Source: a virus (lineage: Duplodnaviria; Heunggongvirae; Uroviricota; Caudoviricetes). From it: DNA of 64,000 nt. Below the pieces are notes generated by a model, which worked only from the letters and a program-made list of their open reading frames with translations, was not told where the DNA came from and ran no database searches. The stretch lies in IMG/VR virus record IMGVR_UViG_2537561978_000005. One strand, written 5' to 3'. Of this stretch, positions 1 to 59,784 are shown in pieces. Position 1 is the stretch's first letter. The number at the start of each line of letters is the position of its first letter. Position numbers and translations under genes: made by a program.

Positions 1-385
1 ACCCCATCGCCTCGCGAAGGACCTGCAAATAGAAAAACGGGAAGAATCCAGGGTGGTTGTCAACGATTTGGTCATAGTTATTGATTGCATGACCAGACCC
101 AATGTCAAAATTACCTGCGTAATGAGAAAAACTTGTACCATCCTGCCGTGAAAGCAGATCGCGCCCTGTATCCACTTTTCGCCCGTCGTCCCATCCACGG
201 ATAAACTCACCGCGTAAATCGGGAAGACGGAGGGTCGGGTAGACTCTGGCCAGAACAGGATATTGTTCTTTTGTAAAGGTGCGCCCGTCGCACTTTAACC
301 AGCCTGCTGGCGGTGTGGCAGTGGGCCACGGAACAGGTACACCAACGGGCAGCGCCGAGCCTTCCCCCAAACCAACGTTTATCTC
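1..385 (-). CDS. Tail-fibre variable C-terminal segment (alternative copy inside invertible segment); partial, continues past window start
   Basis: Minus-strand frame open from 385 down to 1 with no stop; translation ...GLGEGSALPVGVPVPWPTATPPAGWLKCDGRTFTKEQYPVLARVYPTLRLPDLRGEFIRGWDDGRKVDTGRDLLSRQDG... carries tail-collar motifs; frame begins inside the crossover site; absent from ORF track because it has no in-window ATG. Confidence 0.6.
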
Positions 386-387
386 TC
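362..387. other. Candidate inversion crossover site (cix/gix/hix-like) for the adjacent invertase
   Basis: TTCCCCCAAACC-AA-CGTTTATCTCTC; left half fits the TTnnCnnAAACC half-site pattern of Gin/Hin/Cin sites; 55 bp upstream of invertase start and at the point where the tail-fibre frame opens. Confidence 0.45.
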
Positions 388-441
388 AAATCCTCCCCAC
401 ATTATCTCAGTACTTTAACCACTCAAAAGGGAGTATTTTTA

Positions 442-1014
442 ATGCTGATTGGCTACATACGTGTGTCAACAAATGACCAAAACACAGATTTGCAACGCAA
501 TGCATTAATGTGCGCAGGATGTGAACAGATTTTTGAGGACAAAATGAGCGGAACCAAGTCGGAACGACCAGGCCTGAAACGCGCTTTAAAGTGCCTTAAA
601 AGAGGGGATACATTGGTGGTCTGGAAGCTGGATCGGTTGGGTAGAAGAATGAAACACCTCATTGCTCTCACAGAAGAGTTACGCGCAAAAGGTGTCAATT
701 TTCGCAGTCTGACGGATTCAATCGATACCAGCACTCCGATGGGAAGGTTCTTTTTTCATATGATGGGTGCACTGGCAGAAATGGAGCGTGAACTGATAGT
801 TGAGCGCACGCTGGCAGGACTGGCTGCTGCGCGAGCACAAGGAAGAGTTGGAGGACGTCGCCCGAAACTGACGAAGGAGCAGCATGAGCAGATCGCAAGA
901 TTGCTCCAGAAAGGGTATGACAGAAAGCGGCTGGCAATTATCTATGATATTGGACTGTCAACGATCTACCGCTATCACCCTGTTGGGACTGTCATAACGC
1001 AACCTGAAATGTAA
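442..1014 (+). CDS. cin: Serine recombinase, DNA invertase of the Cin/Gin/Hin/Pin family
   Basis: N-terminus MLIGYIRVSTNDQNTDLQ with catalytic Ser, VVWKLDRLGRR, DSIDTSTPMGRFFFHMMGALAEMERE and C-terminal HTH are near-canonical invertase motifs; RBS AAGGGAG 8 nt before ATG 442. Confidence 0.9.
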   Translation: MLIGYIRVSTNDQNTDLQRNALMCAGCEQIFEDKMSGTKSERPGLKRALKCLKRGDTLVVWKLDRLGRRMKHLIALTEELRAKGVNFRSLTDSIDTSTPMGRFFFHMMGALAEMERELIVERTLAGLAAARAQGRVGGRRPKLTKEQHEQIARLLQKGYDRKRLAIIYDIGLSTIYRYHPVGTVITQPEM

Positions 1015-1230
1015 TTCTTTTTCAAATAATGAAACGCCGCGTGGATGCCATTTATCGCACAAGATAGAGTGCATTTATCGCGCGGCGCATCATCATTTGT
1101 TGATATGCGAATGTATCCAATAAGCATATGTCTCCCTTGTATGCTAAGGATACGATCCTAGAAGATGTCCTGTAAGGAAATAACAAACTGACTAAGTTAG
1201 TGGCGCATTAGATGTTATTTCTGGAGGGGT

Positions 1231-1557
1231 ATGTTTGCAGATTATGAAAATCTGGCTGTAGTAGTCATAACATCCCTACTAAGTGGAACCGGCGTATTCC
1301 TTCTCGGAGTTAGAGACGGGCGCATTTCTGCGTCCCTGCTCAATCTTGCGAGTGAATTGTTTACTGCGGTAACAGCCGGGCTTGCGGGGTATGGGGTGGC
1401 GGTTAGCCAAGAATGGCCTGAAGGTATCATTTTCTGCGTTGTTCTGATTGCCAGTAACAACGGTAGTGAAATTTTACAGGGCTTGAAGTCCAGAGCTAGT
1501 TACGTCTTGAATCTCTTAAGCGTAATAGCGAATGGGGGAAAAGGTGGAGAGAAATAA
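1231..1557 (+). CDS. lydA: Holin-like small membrane protein (LydA-like)
   Basis: 108 aa, three hydrophobic segments plus charged C-terminus; position directly after cin and before a dar-like operon as in P1; assignment by synteny and size only. Confidence 0.5.
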   Translation: MFADYENLAVVVITSLLSGTGVFLLGVRDGRISASLLNLASELFTAVTAGLAGYGVAVSQEWPEGIIFCVVLIASNNGSEILQGLKSRASYVLNLLSVIANGGKGGEK

Positions 1558-2003
1558 TGGGTAACTTTGGAAATTATTTCATTTTTATCATGGCATTTGT
1601 TGCCATCATTGACCGTTTCATTTTTCGTCGCAAGAGTGTTGAGATTTTGAGTATTGGTGACGCTGTAGTGAAAGAATCCGCTATAGCATTTCCTGTTTCG
1701 CTACGTGTTAAGCGAAGCTGGGTCAGCAATGCTCAAATCGAATATTGGTTGCAAGACCTGAAAAATCCATCTGTGGTTATTTCAGGGAAAACGCGACCAG
1801 TTGACGCCTCAAAACGCGGTGAGAGAGAAGAGTATTTGCTCATCGATACGAAATATCTTGAGCCAACGAAGTGGGATCTGAAAGTCACATTGACTAACGG
1901 TAACTGCCGACTGAATCCGCTTTATCGCATTTTCCCTATCAATGACTGCATAGAGCGCCAGTTTACGATCGAAAAGCGTAAAGGAGACTGGGATGTCAAA
2001 TAA
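1557..2003 (+). CDS. lydB: LydB-like protein with N-terminal signal-anchor
   Basis: 148 aa; start overlaps lydA stop (TAATG); hydrophobic N-terminus; synteny-based. Confidence 0.4.
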   Translation: MGNFGNYFIFIMAFVAIIDRFIFRRKSVEILSIGDAVVKESAIAFPVSLRVKRSWVSNAQIEYWLQDLKNPSVVISGKTRPVDASKRGEREEYLLIDTKYLEPTKWDLKVTLTNGNCRLNPLYRIFPINDCIERQFTIEKRKGDWDVK

Positions 2004-2613
2004 GAATAATTATGTTCTTCTTAATTATGATGAGTTAAACGAAAAGGGGCTGGCAAAACTCGTCAAAGAAATCAGCAAAGGTGGTTACAAGATAGCGAGG
2101 GTGATCCCTGCAAGTAATGGCAGGAAGAAAGATGGGATCATGACGCGCACGTTTACCCTTATTGGTATTGATGAACAGACAATGGAAGTTCAGGTTAACG
2201 ATACCGGTGATATATCTGGGATCAAACTGAATGGTAAAACAGTACCGTTCAAGCCAGTAAAAACAATGTCGGCTTTGGGGCAATCTCTTGCGGCTTTATT
2301 TAATCGCGGAGCAACTTCTTTCCAGAAGTCATTAGCTCGAAAACTTGCTCGTGCAGCAAAAAATATTGATGACGGAAATAAGAAGCGGCAGGGAGTTAAA
2401 TCTAACGCTCAGAAATTAGCTGAAGCGAAAGAATCACGTGATGCACTCCGTGAAGATATCGCTAATGCTAACGACAAACTGTCTAAACTCCAGAGCAAGT
2501 CAGACAAAGTAATGCAAGATACGGGTAACGTTAAAGCTGCCTTGTCTCAGGAAGTAGCTAAGACACGTGCTCTTAAAGAAGAAATCGCGCGCCTGGAGGA
2601 TGAGCATGATTAA
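1993..2613 (+). CDS. Hdf-like coiled-coil protein of the dar operon
   Basis: 206 aa, Lys/Ala-rich coiled-coil C-terminus; AGGAG RBS 7 nt upstream; size and position match P1 hdf (recollection). Confidence 0.35.
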   Translation: MSNKNNYVLLNYDELNEKGLAKLVKEISKGGYKIARVIPASNGRKKDGIMTRTFTLIGIDEQTMEVQVNDTGDISGIKLNGKTVPFKPVKTMSALGQSLAALFNRGATSFQKSLARKLARAAKNIDDGNKKRQGVKSNAQKLAEAKESRDALREDIANANDKLSKLQSKSDKVMQDTGNVKAALSQEVAKTRALKEEIARLEDEHD

Positions 2614-4531
2614 CAATCCTTTACGAATTAATATTCAGTCTACTTTTGCTGATACGATCCCCGGCTATGTGCCAAGTCGCTGGTCTTCAGAAGAATTAAG
2701 CGAAGATGACCTGATTTTTGAGGCGGCGACCTTAGAAGATATTGAGCTTGCCTATATGGGCAATGAAATTCTGGTTGTGTCTGACGAAGCTATGTTTGAG
2801 TCCATAACTACAACCAGAATTCGGTTAGCTCAAACAATGCGAGCTTTCGTCCGTGCGCTGAATCGTGGCCTGAATGGTACGAATATTATGGCAGGGACTG
2901 ATGAAGCCGGGACCGATGAAAATGGACGTAATTGTATTGGTGGTGCGATTATCGGTCGTGTACGTCGGGTAGCTAATATCCCTGTTTTGACCGCGCAGAT
3001 ACCGCTTACTGACGGGCAGAGTACAAGCATAATTTTCCACTCTCCAACAGCTGACGGGGCAAAAATAAAGAGTAACGACGAGCTTGTTGCATTTCAGTTT
3101 TTACTTAATAAGCGTAACGTAACTCACGTTGTCGCCCCGATTGGTGGGAGAGATGTTTCTTTAAGCCAGGTATGCCAGGCGCTATCTAATTTGATTGAGC
3201 GTAACAGCGAAAAATTTAAGAAAGCAAAAGAGCGCCAGGACAAAATGAAGGCAGATATTGAGAGTTATCTCAATGAAGCAGATAAACTGGCAGAAGAACG
3301 GTCAATAATGATTGATCAGGTGGACGTTGCGCAACGTGGGCTGACTGAAAAGCGTGCTGCTCTTACGGAGATGCAAAAAAAACTTGATGCCCAGAAAGCC
3401 ATCAACGAGGAATTACAAGAAAAACGCGATAAATTGTTGTCTGCTAAAGGTGAAAAAACGAAGGAACGAGCGTTTAGTGACCAGCTGCGACATGTAAAAC
3501 ATAATCTTGCCATTGACGGAAAAACAGTGCTGGATAATGGCGCTGAAGTTAATTATATCACGTCCGGCAGTGACAATTTCGTTACGATAGTAGCACCTGA
3601 AGGTAAATTCAGTATTGATGCCAGTGCTGTCAAAGGAGGCAGTTTGGCAGATGCTGCAACCAAATTACTTAAAGCCTACCGAGAGCATAACGCAGATAAA
3701 TATAAAGTTGATGTGTTACCAGGCCAGCAGGAAGACCCCGAACCACCACAGACAGACCCCGAGACGAACCCAGTATCACAACCAGAGAGCCAGGATGTAG
3801 GTAAATACCACTATGCACTTCAATCTCGCCCGGCTGGTGTTGGTGCTGTGCCGGATGGAAATAAAGCCGTGCTTGATCGTCCTGACCAGGCTGATCAGTA
3901 TTACGAATATGCTCGTCACGGTATCATTACGTATGACCGTAAACTGACAGATGAAGAAGTCAGCCAGTACGAGTTGCTCTATCTTCCTGATGAAGATGAG
4001 CTGAAAGATTTTGCAGGCCAATTGGTTGTGTCCAGCATGTCGAAACATATTGATGGCTATGTAGACCTGTTTGGCAGTGACCTGAAAACATTCAAGGCGC
4101 AAGTGAAAATTCTTTTCCGCAAAGCGTTTCCAAACGTGGCGTATCCACTTGGTGATGGGGAGAACCTTTTCATTATGGACGTGTATAACGCCCTTCAAAA
4201 TCATTCAAGCGAAGTAAAAACAGAGCATGTGGTTGAGCCGGAATCACAACCACAACCAGCACCAGAACAGGAGCCGGAGCCAGAAGAAGCTGGTGAATCA
4301 GCAAGTGAAGCTGATCAGGAGGCAGATAAAGCACTGGAGTACCTGAAATCCGTGCCGGAGCAGTTTACATCCCGCGATCTGACGGTCATCAGTGCTGAAC
4401 TTGATCATGTGCAGGAAGCAGCAAACGCTCTAATCAGCGCAGGTCGATACGACGAGAACGAAGCCACTGTTGGTGCAGCAGTTGACTACCTGATCAACAT
4501 TCTGGCTGAAATTCAGCAGGGAGGTGCTTAA
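2606..4531 (+). CDS. darA: DarA-like capsid-internal antirestriction protein
   Basis: 641 aa with acidic Pro/Glu-rich linkers; GGAGG 6 nt before ATG 2606 (track start 2567 is an upstream in-frame extension); size and operon position match P1 DarA. Confidence 0.5.
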   Translation: MINNPLRINIQSTFADTIPGYVPSRWSSEELSEDDLIFEAATLEDIELAYMGNEILVVSDEAMFESITTTRIRLAQTMRAFVRALNRGLNGTNIMAGTDEAGTDENGRNCIGGAIIGRVRRVANIPVLTAQIPLTDGQSTSIIFHSPTADGAKIKSNDELVAFQFLLNKRNVTHVVAPIGGRDVSLSQVCQALSNLIERNSEKFKKAKERQDKMKADIESYLNEADKLAEERSIMIDQVDVAQRGLTEKRAALTEMQKKLDAQKAINEELQEKRDKLLSAKGEKTKERAFSDQLRHVKHNLAIDGKTVLDNGAEVNYITSGSDNFVTIVAPEGKFSIDASAVKGGSLADAATKLLKAYREHNADKYKVDVLPGQQEDPEPPQTDPETNPVSQPESQDVGKYHYALQSRPAGVGAVPDGNKAVLDRPDQADQYYEYARHGIITYDRKLTDEEVSQYELLYLPDEDELKDFAGQLVVSSMSKHIDGYVDLFGSDLKTFKAQVKILFRKAFPNVAYPLGDGENLFIMDVYNALQNHSSEVKTEHVVEPESQPQPAPEQEPEPEEAGESASEADQEADKALEYLKSVPEQFTSRDLTVISAELDHVQEAANALISAGRYDENEATVGAAVDYLINILAEIQQGGA

Positions 4532-4899
4532 TGACCATCTCTGTTTTAGACCGCCTGAAATTAGGTAAAGAGCTATCAGATCTAATGCAGGCGCAGAAAA
4601 CGGCGCCAGTATTGCAACGCGTCACCATTGGTAAGCAGATTGTTGATGTGATGCTGAAATTGGGCTTGGGGACTGCCGCGCAACCGGCAGCGGAACCGCA
4701 ACAACAGACTGATCCTGTTGTAGATGAAGTTCCTAAGATAGTGACTGACTTCCTGGGCGGTGTGTTCACAAAGTCCACACAAATGGAATTTATTGATGCG
4801 CTGCGTGGGATCTCAAACTATGTTGGCGAGTTCCTTACGTTGGAACAGGCAAAAGAGCAGACCATAAGCTGGGTGAAAGCCAACGGTTATGCAGGGTAA
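4531..4899 (+). CDS. DdrA-like small protein
   Basis: 122 aa, start overlaps darA stop (TAATG); synteny. Confidence 0.35.
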   Translation: MTISVLDRLKLGKELSDLMQAQKTAPVLQRVTIGKQIVDVMLKLGLGTAAQPAAEPQQQTDPVVDEVPKIVTDFLGGVFTKSTQMEFIDALRGISNYVGEFLTLEQAKEQTISWVKANGYAG

Positions 4900-4904
4900 T
4901 CAAA

Positions 4905-4930
4905 GGGGCTGAAATGCCCCTTTCACTTTC
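4905..4930 (+). terminator. Rho-independent terminator-like hairpin
   Basis: GGGGC-tgaaat-GCCCC followed by TTTCACTTT. Confidence 0.45.
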
Positions 4931-4992
4931 CTGTAAGTCCATAAATCACACACTTTTTACACTTCCTGCTTTCTATGTAAGGGGAGTGTATT

Positions 4993-6378
4993 TTGAACAA
5001 ATCAGTTACTTCTGCGCTTTCCGAGGCCGCAGATATTAACAGCGTCATTGCTCTGGTTTCTTCATTAGAGAGGAAAGAAACACGCCTGGGGCGAAGTAGC
5101 TACGTAGTCACCAGCAAAGGTGCAGAGGTAAAGACGGCTTTTAAGGTCGTTGATGCCAGCAGTCTGATCATTTCGAACAACCTTGACGGTATGATTAACC
5201 CGGCCTTCCCGGAAGAACTCCAACCACGAGATCGTACCCGGCTATCCAGCAAACTCCAGGTTAACCGTATTGCCTCCAATTTACGCCCGGCACAATTAAC
5301 GGATTCCGGTATGAGCAGCCACGGAGCGCCGATAGTTGGTCCGGACAACGTTGTTGAATCCGGCAACGGAAGGAGTATGGGTATCTGGCGTGCCTATGAG
5401 CAAGGACAGGCGGATGAGTATCGCCAGTACCTGATCGACCATGCGAAAGAGTTTGGTCTGAATCCTGACGAAATTTCGCAAATGTCTATGCCCGTACTAG
5501 TGCGAGAAAGACTCACAGATGTAGACCGCGCTCAATTTGCCCGCGATTCAAACATTAGCGATCTGCAAGAGATGGCAGCAAGTGAAAAAGCGTATGCGGA
5601 TGCGCAATTTCTCACTGAGAGCGTCATGGCGCTATTTAATCCTTCAGATGATGGAAATCTGCTGGCGCGGTCCAATGATGCGTTTATTCGTGCGTTTTTG
5701 CGCGAAATTGGCGATACAGCGACGGCAGGCTTGCTTACTGCCGATGGGCGTCCCACGAAACAGCTTATCGATCGCATCCAGAATGCAATTTTTGCCAAAG
5801 CGTACAAGGATGAAAGGCTTGTTCGGCTAGTGTCGGAAGAGCCAGATCCGGAAATGCGTAATATCCTGACCGCATTAAATACGGCAGCCAGCGATTTTGC
5901 GCAAATGCAGTCGCTGTCTGGCGACGCTCACCATGACGCAGTAACAGGCTTAGTGGACGGTATAGAGCAGGTTAATGGCCTGGATAAACAGGCTATTGCA
6001 GCGCTACAGGAAGCAATTAACCTTGTTCGTGAAGCAAAAGATAACGGTCAGGCAGTAGAAGAGGTGATCGCACAGCGTGGATTGTTTGGAGATAGCACTC
6101 CGGAAGCAGAAGCGCTTGCTCTGTTTATTGTTGCCAACAACCGAAGCGCTAAGCGAATGGGGGCCGCTTTCAAGAAACTGGCGCAAAAAATTAACGATGA
6201 ACTTATTCACCAACAACAAGCGTTAGGCGATATGTTCGGCGGCGGAGATGTCGATCTGCGTAGCATTTTATCTGCCGTTTCTGATGAAATTGAGGGTGAA
6301 TTTGGCGAAGGGAAAGGTCTGAACTTTGCTATGTTTGAAAATTCTACAGTTCTAAATAATTGCAGTATGGAAAACTAA
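4993..6378 (+). CDS. DdrB-like protein, first of two ORFs covering the ddrB position
   Basis: 461 aa, TTG start with AAGGGGA RBS; followed after a 64-nt gap by a second ORF; together they occupy about 3.1 kb. Confidence 0.4.
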   Translation: MNKSVTSALSEAADINSVIALVSSLERKETRLGRSSYVVTSKGAEVKTAFKVVDASSLIISNNLDGMINPAFPEELQPRDRTRLSSKLQVNRIASNLRPAQLTDSGMSSHGAPIVGPDNVVESGNGRSMGIWRAYEQGQADEYRQYLIDHAKEFGLNPDEISQMSMPVLVRERLTDVDRAQFARDSNISDLQEMAASEKAYADAQFLTESVMALFNPSDDGNLLARSNDAFIRAFLREIGDTATAGLLTADGRPTKQLIDRIQNAIFAKAYKDERLVRLVSEEPDPEMRNILTALNTAASDFAQMQSLSGDAHHDAVTGLVDGIEQVNGLDKQAIAALQEAINLVREAKDNGQAVEEVIAQRGLFGDSTPEAEALALFIVANNRSAKRMGAAFKKLAQKINDELIHQQQALGDMFGGGDVDLRSILSAVSDEIEGEFGEGKGLNFAMFENSTVLNNCSMEN

Positions 6379-6442
6379 GCCAACCGCTGAAATCACATAC
6401 TGATTATGCTGCCGCAAAACTGGAAACAATTTGCGGTGATTC

Positions 6443-8125
6443 ATGGCAACGAAAGACAAAAACAAAGGCTTTCTGTCAGCATTGAAGAAAGCCTTCAACG
6501 GTGGTGATGTTACGCCCGCCGATCCGGTCGTTTTTACGAGCGGGCATAGTGTCGTTGCTCGTTCCGGCCTGTCTGCTTTACGTCCAGGTATACTGGGGAG
6601 CAACAGCGATGGCATGACGAGTGCAGCAGATTCAATTTCTTTATCCGCTGAACTGCCCGGCGAGCGCCTGCAAAAGTACAACATCCTGGAAACGATGGCT
6701 AAAAGCCCGACTATCTCGACGGCTTTAAACATTCACATTGCACATGCGCTTGCGCCTTCAAAAAAAACCGGACAAGCATTCATCCTTTCGCCAAAGGATG
6801 GTTCCGATGCTGAGGCAGTAAGTAGATGTGAAGAGTTAACCGCTGATTTGGGGGCGATGATTAATGACGGACTTCCTTCATGGGCCATGATTATGGCTAT
6901 CTTTGGGGTGTCTTATGTCCGACCTTATGCTGAACAGGGCAGGGGGATAACAGGCATTGAGTCCAGTTATTACACTCTGCCACACTTCGTCCAGGAGTTT
7001 TATCGTGGTAGCCAGCTGGTAGGTTTCAGTGGTGATTACATTCTGGATACGCATAGTTTGCGCAGAGTAATAACCGAACCGTGGAATCTGGTTTCCATGA
7101 AAAATCCCTATTGGACGCCACAGCATAAAGTTATTCCGGTTAGCTACGGCACAAAAGGGTACTCACTGTTAAGTGATCAGGCTGATAAGCCGTTAATGGA
7201 GACGCAGAATTACGGAACTTCATTCCTGGAATACAGCTATGAACCTTACCTTAATTTATGTGCTTCGCTCGCCGCGCTGAAATCAACGCGAAATAATGCA
7301 GCCAAAATTGACCGCCTGATTGCTCTTACGACGAACACACTGGACCCGGTTAATGCGGCGAACTATACGCGTGGCGTCAGCCAGGCATTGAAGCGTCATA
7401 GTGACCTGGTGGCGCAAAGGTCGATTAATGCCAACGCTATTCCGACTGTGCTTAACCATCTGATACCTGTTATGGGAGACGGGAAGAACGGCATCACCAT
7501 TGATACGCAATCCATACCCGCAGATATCAGTGGTATCGAAGACGTTATGTTTCACCTCCGGCAGCTTGCTGCAAGCCTCGGCATTGACGCAACAATGCTT
7601 GGCTGGGCTGATCAGATGAGCGGAGGGCTTGGAGAAGGCGGCTGGCAGCAAACTGCTATCCAGGCTGCATTGCGTGCGAACTGGATCAGACAGGCCGCCC
7701 AGCGAACTATTTATCGGCTTCTGGACATTCACCTCGCTTATAAATACGGCAAGGTTTACACCGAAACAAACCGCCCTTATGACGTGCAATTCAACTCAAT
7801 GAACACTGCTATCCAGGAAGAGGAAAACCGAGAACTGGATGCACGCGCCAACTTTGTTGCTGTCATCTCCCAAATTATGGACCAGATCCAGAACAACCCG
7901 AAACTGGCTGGTAGCGACGCGTTTATGCGTTATCTGTTCACTGAGCAGTTGCACATCGACGATGACACTCTCAACACCATGATCAAAGAGTTTAAGGCGA
8001 ATGAATCAGAGCAAAACAACGAGCATGGTATGTACGAATCCGCGCCGTTGTCGTCCGGTGACGATCCGGAAAACTGGACGCCAGAACAGTTAATAAACTT
8101 TGCAAAATTTGTGATGAGCAATTAA
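6443..8125 (+). CDS. DdrB-like protein, second ORF
   Basis: 560 aa; ATG 6443 preceded by weak GGTGA; separated from the upstream ORF by a stop and a CCGCAAA...TTTGCGG stem-loop. Confidence 0.4.
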   Translation: MATKDKNKGFLSALKKAFNGGDVTPADPVVFTSGHSVVARSGLSALRPGILGSNSDGMTSAADSISLSAELPGERLQKYNILETMAKSPTISTALNIHIAHALAPSKKTGQAFILSPKDGSDAEAVSRCEELTADLGAMINDGLPSWAMIMAIFGVSYVRPYAEQGRGITGIESSYYTLPHFVQEFYRGSQLVGFSGDYILDTHSLRRVITEPWNLVSMKNPYWTPQHKVIPVSYGTKGYSLLSDQADKPLMETQNYGTSFLEYSYEPYLNLCASLAALKSTRNNAAKIDRLIALTTNTLDPVNAANYTRGVSQALKRHSDLVAQRSINANAIPTVLNHLIPVMGDGKNGITIDTQSIPADISGIEDVMFHLRQLAASLGIDATMLGWADQMSGGLGEGGWQQTAIQAALRANWIRQAAQRTIYRLLDIHLAYKYGKVYTETNRPYDVQFNSMNTAIQEEENRELDARANFVAVISQIMDQIQNNPKLAGSDAFMRYLFTEQLHIDDDTLNTMIKEFKANESEQNNEHGMYESAPLSSGDDPENWTPEQLINFAKFVMSN

Positions 8126-51289: not shown

Positions 51290-51595
51290 ATGCTCTATGC
51301 GGTTCCTCAGCAAGCTTCTGATTCTTTGAAGTTAATCAAGACTGTACTTCAGCTTATAGCATCTCAACAAGAAGTGTCACAGCAGTTAAAGTTACGGGTT
51401 TATGAGGTGATCAGAGAAGCCTCAAACTTAAGTGTAGATAAAGGTGATCAATTACAGATTCCTTCTCACAGAGAGTCCATCTCGCTCGCGGTAGAGATAC
51501 GCCACACTAAGGCGCTCGCCCAGGTGCTAACCAAAGTAACTAGCGAAGATATGTTAGAACCCGTAATGGCCCGGAATGTATTAGAGTACATTTAA
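51290..51595 (+). CDS. Hypothetical small protein, first gene of AT-rich operon
   Basis: 101 aa, strong RBS AAGGAGGGG; stop overlaps next start (TAATG). Confidence 0.6.
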   Translation: MLYAVPQQASDSLKLIKTVLQLIASQQEVSQQLKLRVYEVIREASNLSVDKGDQLQIPSHRESISLAVEIRHTKALAQVLTKVTSEDMLEPVMARNVLEYI

Positions 51596-52668
51596 TGCTT
51601 GCATTTACACAACTTACATTAGTTCGAAATAAGCTAAGGGAGATATCAGAATCTCCCTATTTTTCTAAAGACATGCATGAATATCTTGCTGTTCTACAAG
51701 AAGCGGTAGATAAGCTCTATGAAAACCATGTGAATGTTGCTGATAAAATAATTGCGGATTGTACTTTTTTTATCACCGATGCAGTTAATTTTTTCACTGG
51801 CAGTACTACAAAGAAAATTCCCTACGAGATTGTTTATTGCTTAAATGATGCCTGTAAAAAATGGATAAGTGAAAAAACACTTATAACCACAGCCCTATCT
51901 CCAGATATGCATGGGTTTTATTTTAAGTCTGTAAACAAGAATTTGTATTCTTTATTTGATGAAGTTTTAAATGTCAAATTCGAGGTCGAATTAATTCAGA
52001 TTTCATTACCTGAAATGTACAGAAGACGACCATTATGCTCTATACCTTTATATCACGAATTGGGACATTTCGTTGATATTAGCAAAGGTATTTCTGAGCT
52101 TGCCTGTCTTAACTATCGTTCCAAGGACAAAGGCACACTTCCAGGACCAGAATGGAGTAATCTACCTGATGTTATTTGGATAAATCATTGCAGAGAATAT
52201 TTTGCAGATCTATTTAGTGCCCAATTTATTGGAAAAAGTGGGGTAGATTTCTTATACAAATTAGCTGGCTCTCATCCTGCAAGCTATACTCACCCATCCA
52301 CAGAAGATAGAGTTAAAATTGTAAGCGACTTTTTGAACAAAGTGGAAAATCCAGTTGTTGGCATGTTCAATGCTGTGATATCAGCCTTACATAAGGGTGG
52401 GCAGATTATTTCTCCTTGTTTGACATTGCCGACACCTTTGCTTGATGTGAAATCAGCTTTTGATAATGTGCGTCCTTTTGTTATTCGCGACCACAATGAA
52501 ATGCATGCTTTTATTAACAGCAGCTGGCAGTACTTATGCTCTGAATGGGAAAAACCTACGGGTATATGGTCTGGGTTGTCAAAAGAAGCCATAGAAAAAA
52601 CTATAAATGATTTGGTTGAAAAATCGATTCGAAACGTAATGATTCTTGAAAAATGGAGTGCACAATGA
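51595..52668 (+). CDS. ImmA/IrrE-like (M78-type) HExxH zinc-metallopeptidase-domain protein
   Basis: 357 aa; PLYHELGHFVD followed about 40 residues later by HCREYFADLFSAQF, matching the HExxH...E..FA..LL arrangement of M78 peptidases; about 35% GC. Confidence 0.5.
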   Translation: MLAFTQLTLVRNKLREISESPYFSKDMHEYLAVLQEAVDKLYENHVNVADKIIADCTFFITDAVNFFTGSTTKKIPYEIVYCLNDACKKWISEKTLITTALSPDMHGFYFKSVNKNLYSLFDEVLNVKFEVELIQISLPEMYRRRPLCSIPLYHELGHFVDISKGISELACLNYRSKDKGTLPGPEWSNLPDVIWINHCREYFADLFSAQFIGKSGVDFLYKLAGSHPASYTHPSTEDRVKIVSDFLNKVENPVVGMFNAVISALHKGGQIISPCLTLPTPLLDVKSAFDNVRPFVIRDHNEMHAFINSSWQYLCSEWEKPTGIWSGLSKEAIEKTINDLVEKSIRNVMILEKWSAQ

Positions 52669-53282
52669 ATCTCCTAAGCAAAGCTGAATTGCTGCAATAT
52701 TATGAATCAGAAGAACCTGAGTCGTTGTTCATTGAACCTCTTCTAAATAAAAACCAAATTGGAAACTTCACCATAGACCTTAGACTTGGTTACGATTTTT
52801 TAGTGTCTATTATGACAAGGAAGCCGTCAATAGAGTTAATTCCCTCAAAAAACAATGATACTCATCAACCAATCAGAACATTTTTCCAGGAAACAAGGAG
52901 AGATCTTGGGGATAGGTTCATTGTTTACCCGAATCAAGTGGTACTGGCAACAACATTAGAATATGTTTGTTTGCCACCAGATTGCTACGCTGATGTATTG
53001 TCCAGAAGCAGCTATACAAGGCTTGGTCTTTCATTAAATACCATGATACAACCAGGGTACAGAGGCTGTATATCTTTAGAGTTATTTAATCATGGGAATA
53101 GCCCTGTAGAACTTATTGTTGGATCTCGCATATGTCAAATTCGTATATTCAAGAATGAAACTGTCGGTGAATACATAAGTCATGAGTCTCACAGGAAATA
53201 TTTCGGAAATGTGAGGCCAACCGTCTCAGCAGCAGAAAGTGATAATGAATTAAATATGCTGGAAAAGATCCGACAAAAATGA
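52653..53282 (+). CDS. dCTP deaminase-family (dUTPase superfamily) enzyme
   Basis: 209 aa; IDLRLGYDF, LATTLEYVCLP, SRSSYTRLGLSLNT, GYRGCISLELFNHGNSPVEL, RICQIRIF align with E. coli Dcd core blocks from memory; 16-nt overlap with upstream gene. Confidence 0.55.
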   Translation: MECTMNLLSKAELLQYYESEEPESLFIEPLLNKNQIGNFTIDLRLGYDFLVSIMTRKPSIELIPSKNNDTHQPIRTFFQETRRDLGDRFIVYPNQVVLATTLEYVCLPPDCYADVLSRSSYTRLGLSLNTMIQPGYRGCISLELFNHGNSPVELIVGSRICQIRIFKNETVGEYISHESHRKYFGNVRPTVSAAESDNELNMLEKIRQK

Positions 53283-53370: not shown

Positions 53371-53763
53371 TTAAAAATCACCTGCGCGCTGTTTTTCAAG
53401 CACAGATTTAACATTTGGCACTTTCCCTTTAAAAGAATGGAAAGTGCCACATTTTTCTGTTTTAACTTCGCGCAGAGCTTCGCCATCGGCGTTCTGCCAT
53501 TGATGGGATAATGTCATATCACCGCGAGAAGGAACATCCAGCGAGTACAGCGTGTAAGTTCCCCCCATCTCCGCATACTCCTGGAACACATAGCTCATTA
53601 CGTCAGATTCAGTTTTTCGGTGTACGTTATCAACCTTATTCCCATTCAGAAATATGGCATCTGGATAGATTTTTATATCAAACCGACCGCACTTAACTTG
53701 TAAATTTCCGGCGCTCGCGATCAAAGGGAAAGACGCCAGTAAAGCAATTGTCAATCTTTTCAA
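53371..53763 (-). CDS. Secreted hypothetical protein
   Basis: 130 aa, signal peptide MKRLTIALLASFPLIASA, TTG start after GGAGG. Confidence 0.5.
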   Translation of the reverse strand: MKRLTIALLASFPLIASAGNLQVKCGRFDIKIYPDAIFLNGNKVDNVHRKTESDVMSYVFQEYAEMGGTYTLYSLDVPSRGDMTLSHQWQNADGEALREVKTEKCGTFHSFKGKVPNVKSVLEKQRAGDF

Positions 53764-53783
53764 TTCTGCCTCCGCTGCGTAAC

Positions 53784-54407
53784 TTATTGCCCGTATTTTT
53801 TACACCATTGCTCTGCCATTTGTTTGGCTAAAGGCCCGGCTACTGCACTGTATTCTGCTGTTTTACTTTGCACACATGAAGCAGATGGTTTTTTATTTCG
53901 CTGCTCGGTTAGTTTGCGCTCATAAGCCATCATGCTATCGAACCCGGCAATATCACTTTGGCGAAGCATTCCCTTTTTAACCAAAAATTGCTGCCCCTCG
54001 GGCACCAACGCAAGCATAAAAAGTGGTTGCAATAACTCACCTAATCCTTGCTGGCGATACACTTCGAATTGCTGCCATCCCTGACTTAATCTGGAAAGAG
54101 TATCTTTGGTTGAATAACCTGTTTTTGTTATAGCTTTGTCCGTCAGATATGCTGTATATGCAAAAACGCAAAAGTCAGTTTTACCAATAAACTGAGTTCC
54201 AACAGGCCGTAATGGAATGCCCTCCCTCTTGCAAAAGTCCATAATGGCCGCTTGTGAATGATCCCCACCAGCATTATTCATAACCTGCTGCCCTGCCCTG
54301 AATTGTGCAGGTAACGCAGTTGCATTGGCAGTATTAGCAGATACGCATCCCAACATAGCCGCGAGCGCGGCCCCTAAAACCCTTAACTTCACTACACCAT
54401 CCTTCAT
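53784..54407 (-). CDS. Putative lipoprotein
   Basis: 207 aa, lipobox LGC after hydrophobic h-region (VLGAALAAMLGCVS). Confidence 0.55.
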   Translation of the reverse strand: MKDGVVKLRVLGAALAAMLGCVSANTANATALPAQFRAGQQVMNNAGGDHSQAAIMDFCKREGIPLRPVGTQFIGKTDFCVFAYTAYLTDKAITKTGYSTKDTLSRLSQGWQQFEVYRQQGLGELLQPLFMLALVPEGQQFLVKKGMLRQSDIAGFDSMMAYERKLTEQRNKKPSASCVQSKTAEYSAVAGPLAKQMAEQWCKKYGQ

Positions 54408-55657: not shown

Positions 55658-55987
55658 ATGGGCTATAGCAGACTCGACGACAGGTACATTGAAGACGATA
55701 TTTTTCGTGCGCTGTTTCACCAGGAAATGATTAAGCGGGTATCGGAGTATCACTCTGATAATTTCCAGTACACGATAAAGATTGATGAAGTATATCGTTC
55801 AGACCTTGCAGCCTACCGGGCGTATGGCAATGCAGATTTGCGCTGGGTATTCCGGGTGCTGGTGGGCCATGAGTCAGAAATGGAAGAAATGCCCGCCGGG
55901 ACCACGTTAACTCTTCCTGATGTGGCATGGCTGAGGAACAAGATCCGTGATTACGCGAGCGCGGAACCGGAGATAGAAAATGCCTGA
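55658..55987 (+). CDS. Hypothetical protein
   Basis: 109 aa, RBS GAGAGG; overlaps next gene by 8 nt. Confidence 0.5.
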   Translation: MGYSRLDDRYIEDDIFRALFHQEMIKRVSEYHSDNFQYTIKIDEVYRSDLAAYRAYGNADLRWVFRVLVGHESEMEEMPAGTTLTLPDVAWLRNKIRDYASAEPEIENA

Positions 55988-57173
55988 TTTCCTGAAAAAC
56001 CAGGACGGGCGCTATATCACTGACGGCCTGTCCTCTAAGGACTTCACGCGTTTATTCGACCTTATCAGGAAAGAACAAACCCGTAAGCGCCGACAAGCTC
56101 ACCGGACGCTGACGCCAGGTAGACTGAGGAACAAATCCGCCGAAGATATTCTCAAGTTAGGGAAGAAAAAAGGCGGCACGTTCTTCACGCGAGACGACCT
56201 GAAAGGTTTCGAAAAGCTACGGAGTAAAACACGCGAAAAATATGACAGCAAGACGGCTGGCATCACATACGCCCAGCTGGTGGCATCCAGCCAGGCAATC
56301 GATATTAAGCGTGCAAATAACGCCGTGGATGACGGATCTGGTATCAAAAGAGCTACACCCGTATCTCTTCGCCACAACGTGATTAATATCCGCGTAGAAG
56401 CATCGGATATATCCGTCCACCAGCACCATATCGTCCGGATACGCTTTGAAGAATGGGATCAGATGGTTGATGACATCGCAGAAGACGATAAATCAGCTCT
56501 GAAAATCACTAAATCACTGTGCGCCGGGCGAGTGTCTTTCGATTGTGACTGTGGTCGTCATCAATACTGGTATCGTTACATCGCTACTGCGGGTAACTTT
56601 GCCCTGGCCCCGCCAAAAGAATACGCCTATCCAAAAGTTCGTAACCCTAAGCTACAAGGCGTCGCCTGTAAACACGTGATCCACTCAATGACGCGGTTAC
56701 AGTCCGCAAGTTGGCAAATGAGTATTGCTCGTGCACTACAAAAGGCTGCAACGCAAATTGCATTTGGTGACGATCGCCGACGTACAACCAAACACTTCTC
56801 AAAAGAAGACGAGAAGGAGTTTAATCGCAATCGTAGCAGTAAAACGAACGTTGAAGCCGCCAAACGCGAATGGAGACTCTATCAGAAGCGCCAGGCAGCT
56901 TTAAGTACAAAACTGGCAAAGGACAACGGCAAGATCGACAAACTACGTGACCAATTGACCAAGGCCAGAAAGTTGTCAGATGCACAGAAAAAACGGGCGG
57001 CAGCAAAAGAAGCGGCCTTGCAACGTGAGAAACAGAAAAACAAGGAGCTTCAGCAACGCCTTGCCGATCAGTTCGCACTGAAGAAGCAGGCGTTCATTGA
57101 TGCGCTTGTCATGGCTGGAACACCACCAGCACAAGCTGAAAAAATGTTCATGGAGTATGTAAAAAAAGCATAA
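55980..57173 (+). CDS. SWIM-type zinc-finger protein with basic coiled-coil C-terminus
   Basis: FDCDCGRHQYWY...LQGVACKHVIHS fits CxCxnCxH; 397 aa. Confidence 0.5.
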   Translation: MPDFLKNQDGRYITDGLSSKDFTRLFDLIRKEQTRKRRQAHRTLTPGRLRNKSAEDILKLGKKKGGTFFTRDDLKGFEKLRSKTREKYDSKTAGITYAQLVASSQAIDIKRANNAVDDGSGIKRATPVSLRHNVINIRVEASDISVHQHHIVRIRFEEWDQMVDDIAEDDKSALKITKSLCAGRVSFDCDCGRHQYWYRYIATAGNFALAPPKEYAYPKVRNPKLQGVACKHVIHSMTRLQSASWQMSIARALQKAATQIAFGDDRRRTTKHFSKEDEKEFNRNRSSKTNVEAAKREWRLYQKRQAALSTKLAKDNGKIDKLRDQLTKARKLSDAQKKRAAAKEAALQREKQKNKELQQRLADQFALKKQAFIDALVMAGTPPAQAEKMFMEYVKKA

Positions 57174-57183
57174 ACCACACATA

Positions 57184-57201
57184 GCCTAGCTGCCTAGGCT
57201 A
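57184..57201. terminator. Hairpin between convergent genes
   Basis: AGCCTAG-ctgc-CTAGGCT. Confidence 0.4.
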
Positions 57202-57206
57202 GGCTT

Positions 57207-57935
57207 TCATCTTTTTGAAAAATCAATTTCCGTTTTATCAAATAAATTTGAAATATCAGCAACCAATTTATTAAAATCATGATCGCCATTATAAAGCGAA
57301 GTCTTCTTTATTGCCATTACAAAATCATATAACTTTTCTGGGGAGTCAATACCAACCCCTCTACTTTTAAAAAGCTCAATGATAACTCCAACATCATCAT
57401 ATAATAATTTTATTGCCGCCATAATCTCTTTTTGCTGCCTAAGCAATCTCTCAAGTTCATTTTTATTTTCATCCATAATTCTTTTGTTGAATTGTGTATC
57501 ATTAATACTTTTTATTATTTCAGTCTCTTTTATTTGCAACGCCTTTCTTTTATTTTGATCCATGTCGGCATCCAAATACCTTATCTCTGTATATATTTTA
57601 CTTGTTAGCTTTGATACGCAAAGAGTGACAATCGGAGCTGCAATTGATGCAATAATTCCAAAAATAAATGGCAAGCAAAAATGATAAAACCAAGGAGACA
57701 AAACGCCTTCATAAACTAGAGGAATCTTACCTCCAACAAATGTTACAGATAAAGTATATAGGATATCATCCTTTGACTTCATCAATATTAGTATATCTTT
57801 CCAATTAATAATTAGAAAAGAAATGAATATATATGCAAACACTTTATTAAAAAGCTTGTCTTTTATGGCATCTCCAAAAGATACTTTGATTAGATCATTT
57901 TCAGTCAATTTTTCTGTTGATGAATCTGTATTCAT
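57207..57935 (-). CDS. AT-rich membrane protein, candidate abortive-infection-type effector
   Basis: 242 aa, about 29% GC; two TM helices then Lys/Glu-rich coiled coil. Confidence 0.55.
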   Translation of the reverse strand: MNTDSSTEKLTENDLIKVSFGDAIKDKLFNKVFAYIFISFLIINWKDILILMKSKDDILYTLSVTFVGGKIPLVYEGVLSPWFYHFCLPFIFGIIASIAAPIVTLCVSKLTSKIYTEIRYLDADMDQNKRKALQIKETEIIKSINDTQFNKRIMDENKNELERLLRQQKEIMAAIKLLYDDVGVIIELFKSRGVGIDSPEKLYDFVMAIKKTSLYNGDHDFNKLVADISNLFDKTEIDFSKR

Positions 57936-58076
57936 ATAAACTACCGTGATTTCTAATATCTATTTTATGAAAATTCATTTCCGGTTCGTTATCGAACATC
58001 GGTTCGACCGCACGCAGTGCGGCCTCATAATCTTGTTCTGTACGGATAGATTTAATGTTCATTAATTACAAAGGAA

Positions 58077-58102
58077 AGCCCACTTGCTAAGTGGGCTTTT
58101 TG
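58077..58102 (+). terminator. Terminator-like hairpin
   Basis: AGCCCAC-ttgctaa-GTGGGCT followed by TTTTT. Confidence 0.45.
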
Positions 58103-58830: not shown

Positions 58831-58992
58831 TAGTCATTTGATCCTCCGTGATGATTACCGAATGCCATAACTATAGCGCACCGTTGCACTGTGCGCAAGT
58901 GCATTTTATGAATTCCCCCTCCTTCATCCAAAATCACAATCTCCAGAAAATCTTCCTTTCGATACCTGACAGATCGACCTTTGAGGATGCTT

Positions 58993-59784
58993 ATGGGCCG
59001 TTTTGACGAATGGTTTGCTGACGATGCAAACCTGGCAAGTAAGGAGTCAGAACATGACAGCACGCAGAGAGAAACGCCAGCGCCGATTGAAGCGAATGCA
59101 GGAGGCGCGCCGGAACATGGCAATACCGGTTCGGATTCATTCAGCATTCTGGAAGAGCAACCCGCCGCCAAAGCTGATAGCCATGATAATTTTGCTGATA
59201 GCAACGGTGGCCTTACTCCGGATGCTGGCGAATCAGATATAGCCATACTTCCATCTTCCCTGGCTGGCAGAGAACCGACTCCACAGTTAAAAGCACGCTA
59301 TAACGGGCATAAAGCCTTTAACGACCAAATCCGCGCAGACTGGATGCTGATTATTGAATCCAGCCCAGACGCGTTTCAGGCTCTCTTATATCGACCAGAT
59401 GTTGGCACATATGGGGTAGTCAGCGACGAAACAGGAGAAGAGTCATTCACCGAACTGGATAACAACCAACGCGAACTGACTTACCAGGAACCTGAAATCG
59501 TTTATGTGCTGGATAACCCTGACGGGCGTGACTCTTTCCATGCGATTGACGCAGACGGTGAGCAGGATGGCTTAACCGATGATGTTCTGATTCTGCGTAT
59601 TGCAGCAAATAACGTCCCCGTCGGCTCAATTCTTGAATGGAATGAAGAGATGGTAAACGGCGTAGCGCGCCGCTGGTGGTACGTGCACCGTATTTTTAGC
59701 TACGGCACACAGCATGTTGGTTCGCTTTACTACTGCATACCTGCCAGGAATTTTGATACGACTCAAAACGGAGTGATCGAATGA
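58993..59784 (+). CDS. Hypothetical protein (acidic N-terminal half), possible virion component
   Basis: ATG 58993 after SD GAGGA (track start 58981 is TTG); coupled to next gene. Confidence 0.5.
   Translation: MGRFDEWFADDANLASKESEHDSTQRETPAPIEANAGGAPEHGNTGSDSFSILEEQPAAKADSHDNFADSNGGLTPDAGESDIAILPSSLAGREPTPQLKARYNGHKAFNDQIRADWMLIIESSPDAFQALLYRPDVGTYGVVSDETGEESFTELDNNQRELTYQEPEIVYVLDNPDGRDSFHAIDADGEQDGLTDDVLILRIAANNVPVGSILEWNEEMVNGVARRWWYVHRIFSYGTQHVGSLYYCIPARNFDTTQNGVIE

Follow-up and report, generated by a model that had tools for sequence, protein, structure and literature searches.

The 64-kb window analyzed here (64,000 nucleotides of the tailed-phage record IMGVR_UViG_2537561978_000005) encodes, on its minus strand, a 242-aa membrane protein in a region that shares 99.3% identity with Escherichia phage D6. 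In this P1-like plasmid prophage, the same gene (orf73) is annotated as "hypothetical protein." This gene can be described as a putatively autonomous single-gene moron of the D6-type phage-plasmid, most likely one that protects the lysogen from other phages; participation in phage exclusion of any kind is an evenly balanced proposition.

A moron slot in the tail operon of D6-type phage-plasmids

In phage P1, genes 26-25-7-24-6-5 form one unbroken late operon, with genes 25 and 7 located 3 bp apart, whereas D6-type elements carry an antisense cassette between genes 25 and 7. Given the uninterrupted operon in P1, this block is a reverse-oriented insertion that splits the late tail operon, the classic moron geometry, and the same junction is empty in P1 and filled in the D6-type elements. 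The composition is that of a phage moron as well: the gene has a guanine-plus-cytosine (GC) content of 29.2% versus 47.3% for the window, and a similar disparity is seen in most other contexts of the family. A previous sequence-only reading of this DNA had singled it out as the most compositionally foreign gene in the window, at about 29% GC, which agrees with a whole-window scan, where the minimum-GC 729-bp stretch begins at position 57211; the other low-GC island, at 50.7 to 53.5 kb, goes down to 36 to 37% only. The borders given in that reading were exact and correspond to an open reading frame (ORF) on the minus strand with an ATG start. That this ORF is a genuine gene is seen from its full-length match to phrog_8191, the existence of ∼70 family representatives, and ratios of nonsynonymous to synonymous substitution rates (dN/dS) of 0.16 to 0.28. 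These ratios, obtained for pairs within the same allele class (dS of 0.05 to 0.55), indicate that the gene is under purifying selection. The window protein is 99.2% identical to D6 orf73, with two amino acid differences and an intact reading frame.

Among the D6-like loci, the flanking tail proteins and HigA are 96 to 100% identical, HigB is 88 to 99% identical, and the helix-turn-helix (HTH) protein encoded by orf72 is 93 to 100% identical. The membrane protein is only 36 to 60% identical, with a GC content of 29 to 32% in its gene. DNA identity to D6 is 97 to 100% up to the end of orf72, falls to ∼45 to 80% across the membrane-protein ORF only, and returns to 95 to 100% once the stop codon of the convergently transcribed tail gene is reached. 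The slot is occupied in ∼97% of the cases (114 plasmids carry the locus versus 117 with a D6-type gp25 of at least 80% identity). Among 5,426 complete genomes of Escherichia coli, the locus was found in 93, always on plasmids. The existence in D6-type phage-plasmids of a dedicated, near-always-filled slot with cassette-like allele replacement is a new observation; previous work on D6-like plasmids (PMC6799933) mentions higA-higB only, as an addiction system.

The contents of the slot follow five layouts (loci are referred to by their L numbers). In layout a, seen in D6 and in L003 to L005, a PF05015-type higB is followed by higA, orf72, and the membrane-protein gene (hereinafter, the family member). 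Layout b, with a PF09907-type HigB, orf72, and the member, is found in L002, L006, L025 to L027, L029, and L031; the gap of just 4 bp between the PF09907-type HigB gene and orf72 identifies these two as a true pair. In layout c, which includes the window, L028, and the L007 group, higB and higA are followed by a remnant of orf72 (53, 58 to 61, or 65 to 66 aa) and the member. Layout d consists of the member alone (L034, L035, and L080), and layout e consists of the PF09907-type HigB and HTH genes without the member (L085). Alleles of the membrane protein assort independently of the toxin: the 42% allele is found with both toxin types (L002 versus L003), and so is the 36% allele (L025 to L027 versus L028 and L009).

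Protein family, predicted architecture, and genomic contexts

The match to phrog_8191 (E = 7.5e-115) spans residues 1 to 242 of 242, which makes the window protein a full-length member of that family. Its N-terminal region, with two transmembrane (2-TM) segments, also shows weak matches to phrog_13369 and phrog_4780, in agreement with the wider family recovered in profile searches. As none of these three PHROG families carries a functional annotation, this membership says nothing about function. A word-indexed search retrieved just 17 clusters, all from E. coli, with 36 to 58% identity except for the near-identical ones; repeating it with a broad alignment gained little, as the output was dominated by coiled-coil words. 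When 1.84 billion representative sequences were searched exhaustively with a HMMER profile, 70 proteins were retrieved with E values of ≤1e-3, 25 of them with E values of ≤1e-10. This family of ∼70 representatives is new; it has no characterized relative and is not in PADLOC-DB v2.0.0.

All members of the family share an N-terminal module, which consists of a basic pre-TM motif, the TM1 segment, an "SK..I" turn with a short loop helix, and the TM2 segment and is followed by helical regions of widely differing length, for total sizes of 200 to 470 aa. The family motif, N-x4-Y-x3-S-x4-NW in TM1, SK-x2-I, and LP-x3-G-x7-P in TM2, is present in the window protein. Asn44 is invariant in 61 sequences; Trp45, Pro89, and Pro101 are at least 90% conserved; and Gly93 is also conserved. 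The core that includes TM1 (residues 25 to 63; see Table 1) shows 84 to 98% pairwise identity among the D6-like alleles and 33 to 38% family-wide. The respective values are 37% and 14% for the long helix and 48% and 16% for the C-terminal domain. The second half of the periplasmic loop is variable and carries insertions and deletions family-wide.

The proposal of two transmembrane helices held up in both Kyte-Doolittle hydropathy plots (segments at approximately residues 32 to 52 and 84 to 108) and the AlphaFold model based on 61 sequences (helices 31 to 53 and 81 to 108). Modeling with an alignment of 13 sequences gave a poor structure, with a predicted local distance difference test (pLDDT) score of 65; with 61 sequences, this score rose to 87.6. 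The latter model contains helices at residues 12 to 28, 31 to 43 and 45 to 53 (TM1, kinked at Asn44/Trp45), 58 to 67 (the short loop helix), 81 to 191 (TM2 and the stalk in one uninterrupted helix), 199 to 210, and 219 to 234. The "long charged coiled coil" of the sequence-only reading is thus present as a long charged helix, with Lys, Arg, Glu, and Asp making up 37% of its residues; its coiled-coil nature fared less well, as the test for 3.5-residue periodicity returned a p value of ∼0.08 for the window protein and p values of <0.05 in 16 of the 61 family members. The density of Lys and Arg is ∼0.2 per residue on the N-terminal side of TM1 and on the C-terminal side of TM2 versus 0.08 in the loop, which, by the positive-inside rule, favors an N-in/C-in topology with the long helix in the cytoplasm. 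This inner-membrane protein is probably oligomeric. A conserved polar Asn residue in TM1 and conserved prolines and glycine in TM2 would not be needed in a plain anchor, and their presence suggests that the TM module acts in the membrane, for example through oligomerization, pore formation, or contact with a conserved membrane component of the host.

In one locus (L006, positions 5001 to 5828), the database gene call for a 275-aa family member (P0005) begins inside the orf72 terminator hairpin (ATGACCGC...). The real start of this protein is probably the internal methionine of the sequence MSTDSS, as in the 259-aa allele, and the 275-aa form is probably an overextended annotation.

Outside the D6-type elements, a scan of species-representative genomes yielded a single locus, on an Enterobacter contig, where the member stands by itself amid housekeeping genes. 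Scans of viral and metagenomic sequences with subfamily alignments added ∼60 further loci, which represent ∼30 nonredundant contexts. In nearly all of these, the member is a single low-GC gene (31 to 37% GC; 42% in L078) within phage DNA of 44 to 55% GC. It adjoins P2-type portal and terminase genes (L050) or terminase genes (L051, L053, L055, and L056), follows gpD of a P2-like prophage (L036), resides in a P4-type integrase islet next to ychF (L079) or between umuC and an excisionase gene (L040), adjoins the genes for a Dcm methylase and for an AAA_21/AAA_15 ATPase with HEC-04 as its best match in PADLOC (L039), lies between two AbiTii genes on its upstream side and a resolvase gene on its downstream side (L043), or forms a tandem pair (L077). 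A scan of 80 neighboring proteins revealed phage core and lysogeny genes, including a GtrII conversion gene in one context, but no recurrent partner. Given the absence of a recurrent partner and the variety of accessory sites, the family can be regarded as a single-gene moron of tailed phages.

Two of these contexts have additional features. In L043 (positions 1 to 3708), two AbiTii paralogs (PF18864, E values of ∼1e-36 to 1e-41), the member, and a serine resolvase make up a small mobile islet of the defense type. In L077, a viral contig of 35% GC, the tandem paralogs (positions 4015 to 5867) consist of 304 and 301 aa and are preceded, on the opposite strand, by a gene for a 409-aa protein whose N terminus is Xre-like in appearance.

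Proposed role in phage exclusion and competing explanations

The antisense insertion, foreign GC content, cassette exchange, and location in hotspots that also harbor toxin-antitoxin (TA), AbiTii, and methylase genes fit the view of this gene as exclusion cargo. It had been proposed from the sequence that the protein acts as an abortive infection (Abi) or superinfection exclusion (Sie) effector. The insertion, foreign composition, cassette exchange, and hotspot neighbors are in line with this proposal, and a match to a family of this kind is the part that was not found; as it stands, the Abi/Sie reading is plausible, strengthened by the comparative data, and unproven.

A triggered, membrane-perturbing abortive exclusion of the SieB type can be tentatively suggested. 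A phage-derived cue would be sensed by the variable cytoplasmic part of the protein, the TM module would then open or disturb the inner membrane, and the infection would be aborted. The conserved 2-TM module, with its Asn44, Pro89, Gly93, and Pro101 residues, would represent the membrane-acting part, while the hypervariable cytoplasmic helix and the C-terminal domain would set the specificity. It is also possible, albeit short of probable, that this protein is the founding example of an unrecognized family of single-gene phage-borne immunity cassettes that combine a 2-TM effector with an exchangeable cytoplasmic helical sensor.

The closest functional analog is SieB (PF14163) of phages P22 and lambda, the product of a single gene that brings about abortive superinfection exclusion. 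In both cases, a single prophage gene lies antisense in an operon (lambda sieB, a plus-strand gene, is flanked by ral and N, which are both on the minus strand) and encodes N-terminal hydrophobic helices followed by a cytoplasmic domain; the lysogen-protecting role is presumed for the protein studied here. However, the latter is longer, has an unbroken helix of 110 residues, and is hypervariable even between elements that are nearly identical. Lambda RexB, a 143-aa protein described as having four TM helices that is thought to collapse the membrane potential when a phage is sensed, is similarly a prophage-encoded inner-membrane protein, but it works with its partner RexA, whereas the membrane gene described here has no conserved partner.

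Several search results weigh against an exclusion function. The homology search for Abi families that had been proposed along with the original suggestion was negative, with no Abi or Sie family matched in Pfam, NCBIfam, or PADLOC; the window protein had no match of any kind in these three databases and, in PADLOC-DB v2.0.0, zero matches at E values of ≤1. Foldseek searches found no structural relative in either PDB (best E = 3) or BFVD (best E = 1.2), and a sequence-profile search of PDB returned coiled-coil noise only. Homology to SieB was rejected, as neither the window protein nor 34 of its relatives matched PF14163 and the hhalign probability against lambda SieB was 1.3%. Homology to RexB was rejected as well, with an hhalign probability of 0.4% and no recurrent neighbor gene.

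Assignment of the 34 relatives to known families was also attempted and abandoned, as Pfam, NCBIfam, and PADLOC yielded coiled-coil noise only (TniB, Scy, LmuB, and JetC). The CBASS "2TM effector" model matched a single relative (E = 4e-4), a result that the rest of the family did not reproduce. An Rfam search over the locus revealed no structured RNA at E values of ≤0.1.

If the cassette model is correct, the identity of the allele would determine which competing phages are excluded by the lysogen, and closely related phage-plasmids would differ mainly in one specificity gene. In some lineages, its expression or triggering could be coupled to the upstream HigB/HigA2 pair related to the PD-lambda-2 defense system (see below). 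Phage-plasmids of the D6 and P1 types are common in clinical and livestock isolates of E. coli, Salmonella, and Klebsiella and move resistance genes. Should the slot serve exclusion, a single gene would decide which phages, possibly including rival phage-plasmids, can infect the carrier, which would be relevant to phage therapy and to the understanding of phage-plasmid competition. A defense function would also mean that this family has been missed by PADLOC and Pfam and that its conserved TM core and variable stalk are suited for domain swaps. If the function is not in defense, it would still have to be explained why a membrane protein of such variability is fixed at a single site in a tail operon.

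The likeliest of the other explanations, albeit an unlikely one, is that the protein serves the life cycle of the phage-plasmid itself, as a lysis-timing or antiholin-like factor, an assembly or maintenance anchor, or an envelope factor of lysogenic conversion. Such a role would fit the retention of the gene at one tail site in ∼97% of D6-type elements, even with alleles that are 20 to 35% identical, and the proximity of the GtrII conversion gene in one context; the N-in/C-in 2-TM topology and charged C terminus are also holin-like. However, the gene is opposite in orientation and foreign in GC content to the operon that it interrupts, and P1 builds the same tail without it. In unrelated phages, the gene occupies different positions, and in the Enterobacter chromosome it is found alone. 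Hypervariability would be unusual for an assembly factor that has to fit partners that are 96 to 100% identical. With 242 or more residues, these proteins are far larger than holins, and in the window the neighbors are tail and TA genes rather than lysis genes; class II holins have ∼65 to 95 aa and two TM segments and are encoded beside the endolysin.

The nearest rival of triggered abortive exclusion, also judged unlikely, is superinfection exclusion at the entry step, whereby an inner-membrane protein blocks genome injection and the cell survives. T4 Imm, P22 SieA, and HK97 gp15 are small phage- or prophage-encoded inner-membrane proteins of this kind that protect the host from related phages, and some of them are encoded by morons among structural genes. 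The moron geometry described above also fits an entry block, with the gene inside the tail/baseplate cluster in all D6-type elements. The best support for an entry block comes from close alleles of the P0002 type, in which 9 of the 16 variable residues fall into residues 64 to 108 (the loop and TM2, 19% of the protein) and none into the C-terminal domain, a clustering that rests on 16 sites and on a region picked after seeing the data. The indels in the second half of the periplasmic loop point in the same direction. In contrast, more than half of the protein consists of the cytoplasmic helix and the C-terminal domain, which are hypervariable between allele classes and not obviously needed for blocking entry, and in other phages the gene shows no association with tail genes. 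Imm, SieA, and gp15 are short and mostly membrane-embedded, whereas the protein studied here has ∼135 cytoplasmic residues; it had no match to entry-blocking families of this type in PADLOC or Pfam.

Toxin-antitoxin neighbors and other features of the locus

The minus-strand block of D6 consists of orf70 (higB), orf71 (higA), orf72 (the second HTH protein, 119 aa), and orf73; its counterpart in the window is detailed in Table 1. The claim that the membrane gene is located beside a TA pair turned out to be right: the neighboring genes are a bona fide type II higBA, with a RelE-fold HigB toxin followed by an HTH-containing HigA antitoxin. The same is true of the "truncated antitoxin-like ORF," in which the first 29 codons are those of D6 orf72 and the remainder has been lost through a clean 295-bp deletion. 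This ORF shares 35 nt with the 5' end of the membrane gene.

Table 1. Features of the membrane-protein locus, its surroundings, and the encoded protein (positions in the 64-kb window)
Feature	Coordinates	Strand	Evidence
P1 gene-25-like tail gene (D6 orf74), one border of the cargo site; transcribed convergently to the membrane gene	55980..57173	+	phrog_1722, E = 4e-197; 57% identical to P1 gp25
Hairpin between the stop codons of the membrane gene and the gene-25-like gene, terminator-like on both strands	57182..57205	.	dG -15.5 kcal/mol, z -2.3
Membrane-protein gene (D6 orf73), 242 aa, ATG start	57207..57935	-	ORF list; phrog_8191 member
Residues 192-242, small C-terminal helical domain, varies between allele classes	57210..57362	-	Helices 199-210 and 219-234
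Residues 109-191, long charged helix, coiled-coil-like stalk, least conserved, predicted to be cytoplasmic	57363..57611	-	pLDDT 95-99
Residues 84-108, TM2 with conserved P89, G93, and P101	57612..57686	-	Hydropathy, alignments, AlphaFold
Residues 25-63, most conserved core: KDKLFNK motif, TM1 (invariant N44, W45), then KSKDD-I-x-YTLS	57747..57863	-	Alignments
53-aa remnant of an orf72-type, HigA2-like HTH antitoxin, with 29 native codons followed by out-of-frame sequence	57901..58062	-	D6 alignment; phrog_10398 and N terminus of PD-Lambda-2_B
Junction of the 295-bp deletion relative to D6	57974..57975	.	Alignment to D6
Hairpin between higA and the orf72 remnant	58075..58099	-	dG -17.9 kcal/mol, z -4.7
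higA, antitoxin, 112 aa	58119..58457	-	PF01381, E = 7e-11; TIGR02607, E = 7.9e-30
higB, toxin of the PF05015 type, 100 aa	58528..58830	-	PF05015, E = 9.2e-35
P1 gene-7-like tail gene (D6 orf69), the other border of the cargo site	58981..59784	+	phrog_1906, E = 1.6e-116

The deletion removes codons 30 to 119 of orf72, along with the hairpin and T-run that follow orf72 (dG of -15.9 kcal/mol) and separate it from the membrane gene in D6, and ends ∼40 bp upstream of the membrane-gene ATG. No sigma-70-like promoter could be found directly upstream of the membrane gene in the window, where a -10-like TAAAAT is located ∼30 nt before the ATG without a recognizable -35 element; the TA-free relatives have a plausible promoter, TTGATT-17-CAAAAT. 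Thus, the description of this gene as a solitary transcription unit is borne out on its downstream side, where a terminator-like hairpin follows the stop codon, but not on the upstream side, where a promoter was not found and the separating hairpin is gone. As the deletion removed that hairpin, read-through from upstream is possible; its loss could raise read-through into the membrane gene in the window, and without the HTH domain any repression by orf72 would be relieved.

Exactly the same deletion junction is found in the Salmonella plasmid pSa1423-160k (L084, NZ_MK356558.1), so the deletion is a real lineage variant. It was not detected in any of the 5,426 complete E. coli genomes, 4 of which carry the window allele, with orf72 intact in all 4. 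This distribution suggests that the window derives from the pSa1423-160k sublineage.

At the junction of higB and the gene-7-like gene, positions 58831 to 58839 (AAATGACTA, minus strand) exactly match the 9-bp "-22 box" of the P1 late promoter LP26. This candidate P1-type late-promoter box was rejected as consistent with chance: the 64 kb contain one exact 9-mer, with ∼0.5 expected, and the number of one-mismatch copies equals the expectation from shuffled sequences.

Certain lineages of D6-like elements show a link to PD-lambda-2, an experimentally validated three-gene Abi system that consists of the HigB-like protein A, protein B with a HigA-like HTH domain fused to an ImmA/IrrE peptidase, and the P4-antitoxin-like protein C, which is needed for defense but not for neutralization (Vassallo et al. 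2022, PMC9519451). The PF09907-type toxin of the sister loci matches the PADLOC model PD-Lambda-2_A with an E value of 1e-41, and the full-length D6 orf72 matches positions 1 to 119 of the 402-position PD-Lambda-2_B model with an E value of 4e-43. Judged by these sequence matches, the remnant ORF in the window is what is left of the antitoxin of a different, PD-lambda-2-related HigB toxin, the one that precedes the membrane gene in sister elements, a link that the sequence-only reading, which treated the TA pair as a neighbor only, did not draw. Similarly to PD-lambda-2, the sister loci have an accessory gene downstream of the genes for a HigB and a HigA-like protein. However, the 119-aa D6 orf72 lacks the ImmA/IrrE peptidase domain of protein B, and component C is absent, with an unrelated membrane protein encoded in the downstream position; accordingly, the D6-type pair is a relative of PD-lambda-2 that falls outside this system. 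The window is even further away, as it has the PF05015-type higBA in place of the PF09907-type toxin and only 29 native codons of orf72. Its PF05015-type toxin had no match in PADLOC, including PD-Lambda-2_A, and the membrane protein matched neither PD-Lambda-2_C nor any further model in PADLOC.

The order HigB, HTH protein, and family member is also found in L030, a D6-like element of Klebsiella, and in L037, an unrelated phage of ∼97 kb. Such a lineage-specific association of the member with PD-lambda-2-like HigB/HigA2 pairs is new. In L038, a sister phage of L037 that retains a 68-aa HTH remnant, a TacA/GNAT (TacAT-type) pair replaces HigB upstream of the remnant and the member (positions 3779 to 4619), mirroring the toxin replacement in D6.

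In the Klebsiella pneumoniae IncFIB/HI1B plasmid NZ_CP104679.1 (L008, positions 5171 to 7765), the HigB gene, the HTH gene, and a member interrupted by the insertion sequence (IS) IS903B form an IS-bounded block. Cassettes of this type, with an IS903B-disrupted member, are carried by ∼55 large Klebsiella plasmids. The TA genes of L008 are 99% identical to those of the L030 cassette at the tail-gene site, which indicates that the block has moved between a phage-plasmid and a large non-phage plasmid, in one direction or the other. Accordingly, the IncFIB/HI1B copy was no longer counted as an independent observation on another type of replicon.

In a conjugative IncF plasmid of Serratia marcescens (NZ_LR890659.1; L085, positions 2523 to 5467), a D6-like fragment with mat-, 26-, and 25-like genes carries a HigB-HTH pair that directly abuts the gene-25-like gene, with no membrane gene.

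The recurrence of the order PF09907-type HigB, HTH protein, and member in the D6-like elements of E. coli and Klebsiella, in L008, and in L037; the matches of these toxins and HTH proteins to PD-Lambda-2_A and PD-Lambda-2_B; and the need for PD-lambda-2C in defense (PMC9519451) could be taken to mean that the membrane protein is the third, accessory or effector component of a HigB/HigA2-type TA-derived defense module, analogous to PD-lambda-2 with its three genes that all take part in defense, and orphaned in the window by toxin replacement and antitoxin decay. This explanation is improbable, as the member alone (L034, L035, and L080) and the TA pair alone (L085) are found at the same site, 22 further contexts contain no HigB or HTH pair, and the alleles of the member assort independently of toxin type. 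In addition, the HTH gene has decayed at least 3 to 4 times beside an intact member (the remnants are 53, 58 to 61, 65 to 66, and 68 aa long), hairpins separate the genes in D6, the member does not resemble PD-Lambda-2_C, and the peptidase domain of PD-lambda-2B is absent. An obligate tripartite HigB-HigA-membrane protein system was therefore rejected as the main reading, given that the junction can hold the member by itself, the TA genes by themselves, or mixtures of the two and that the family lacks a recurrent partner. Layouts d and e, repeated HTH decay beside an intact member, and independent allele assortment argue that the HigB/HigA2-type pairs and the member are separable cargo that share a hotspot.

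The remaining explanation, whereby the gene would be a passenger, selfish or in decay, that currently has no function in the window, is in line with the truncated copies in L023 and L029, the IS903B-disrupted copy in ∼55 Klebsiella plasmids, and the lack of a detected promoter in the window but is highly improbable in view of the intact frame with two amino acid differences from D6, the dN/dS values of 0.16 to 0.28, and the conservation of key TM residues in ∼60 distant relatives.

Two further stretches of the window are of a similar kind. The low-GC island mentioned above (36 to 37% GC) includes a second foreign block on the plus strand (positions 51290 to 53282), which consists of three tightly packed ORFs of 101, 357, and 209 aa. 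The 357-aa ORF has a metalloprotease-like HELGH motif, and the 209-aa ORF encodes a dCTP-deaminase-like protein (PF22769, E = 1.3e-30). None of these three ORFs had a match in PADLOC; the block could represent another accessory or defense-type cargo, a candidate for nucleotide depletion. Next to it, on the minus strand (positions 53371 to 54407), two ORFs of 130 and 207 aa with signal-peptide-like N termini occupy the place of a 298-aa simB-like gene of D6. As sister loci contain 202-plus-130-, 306-, 291-, or 294-aa versions at this position, it is another variable slot near that of the membrane gene.

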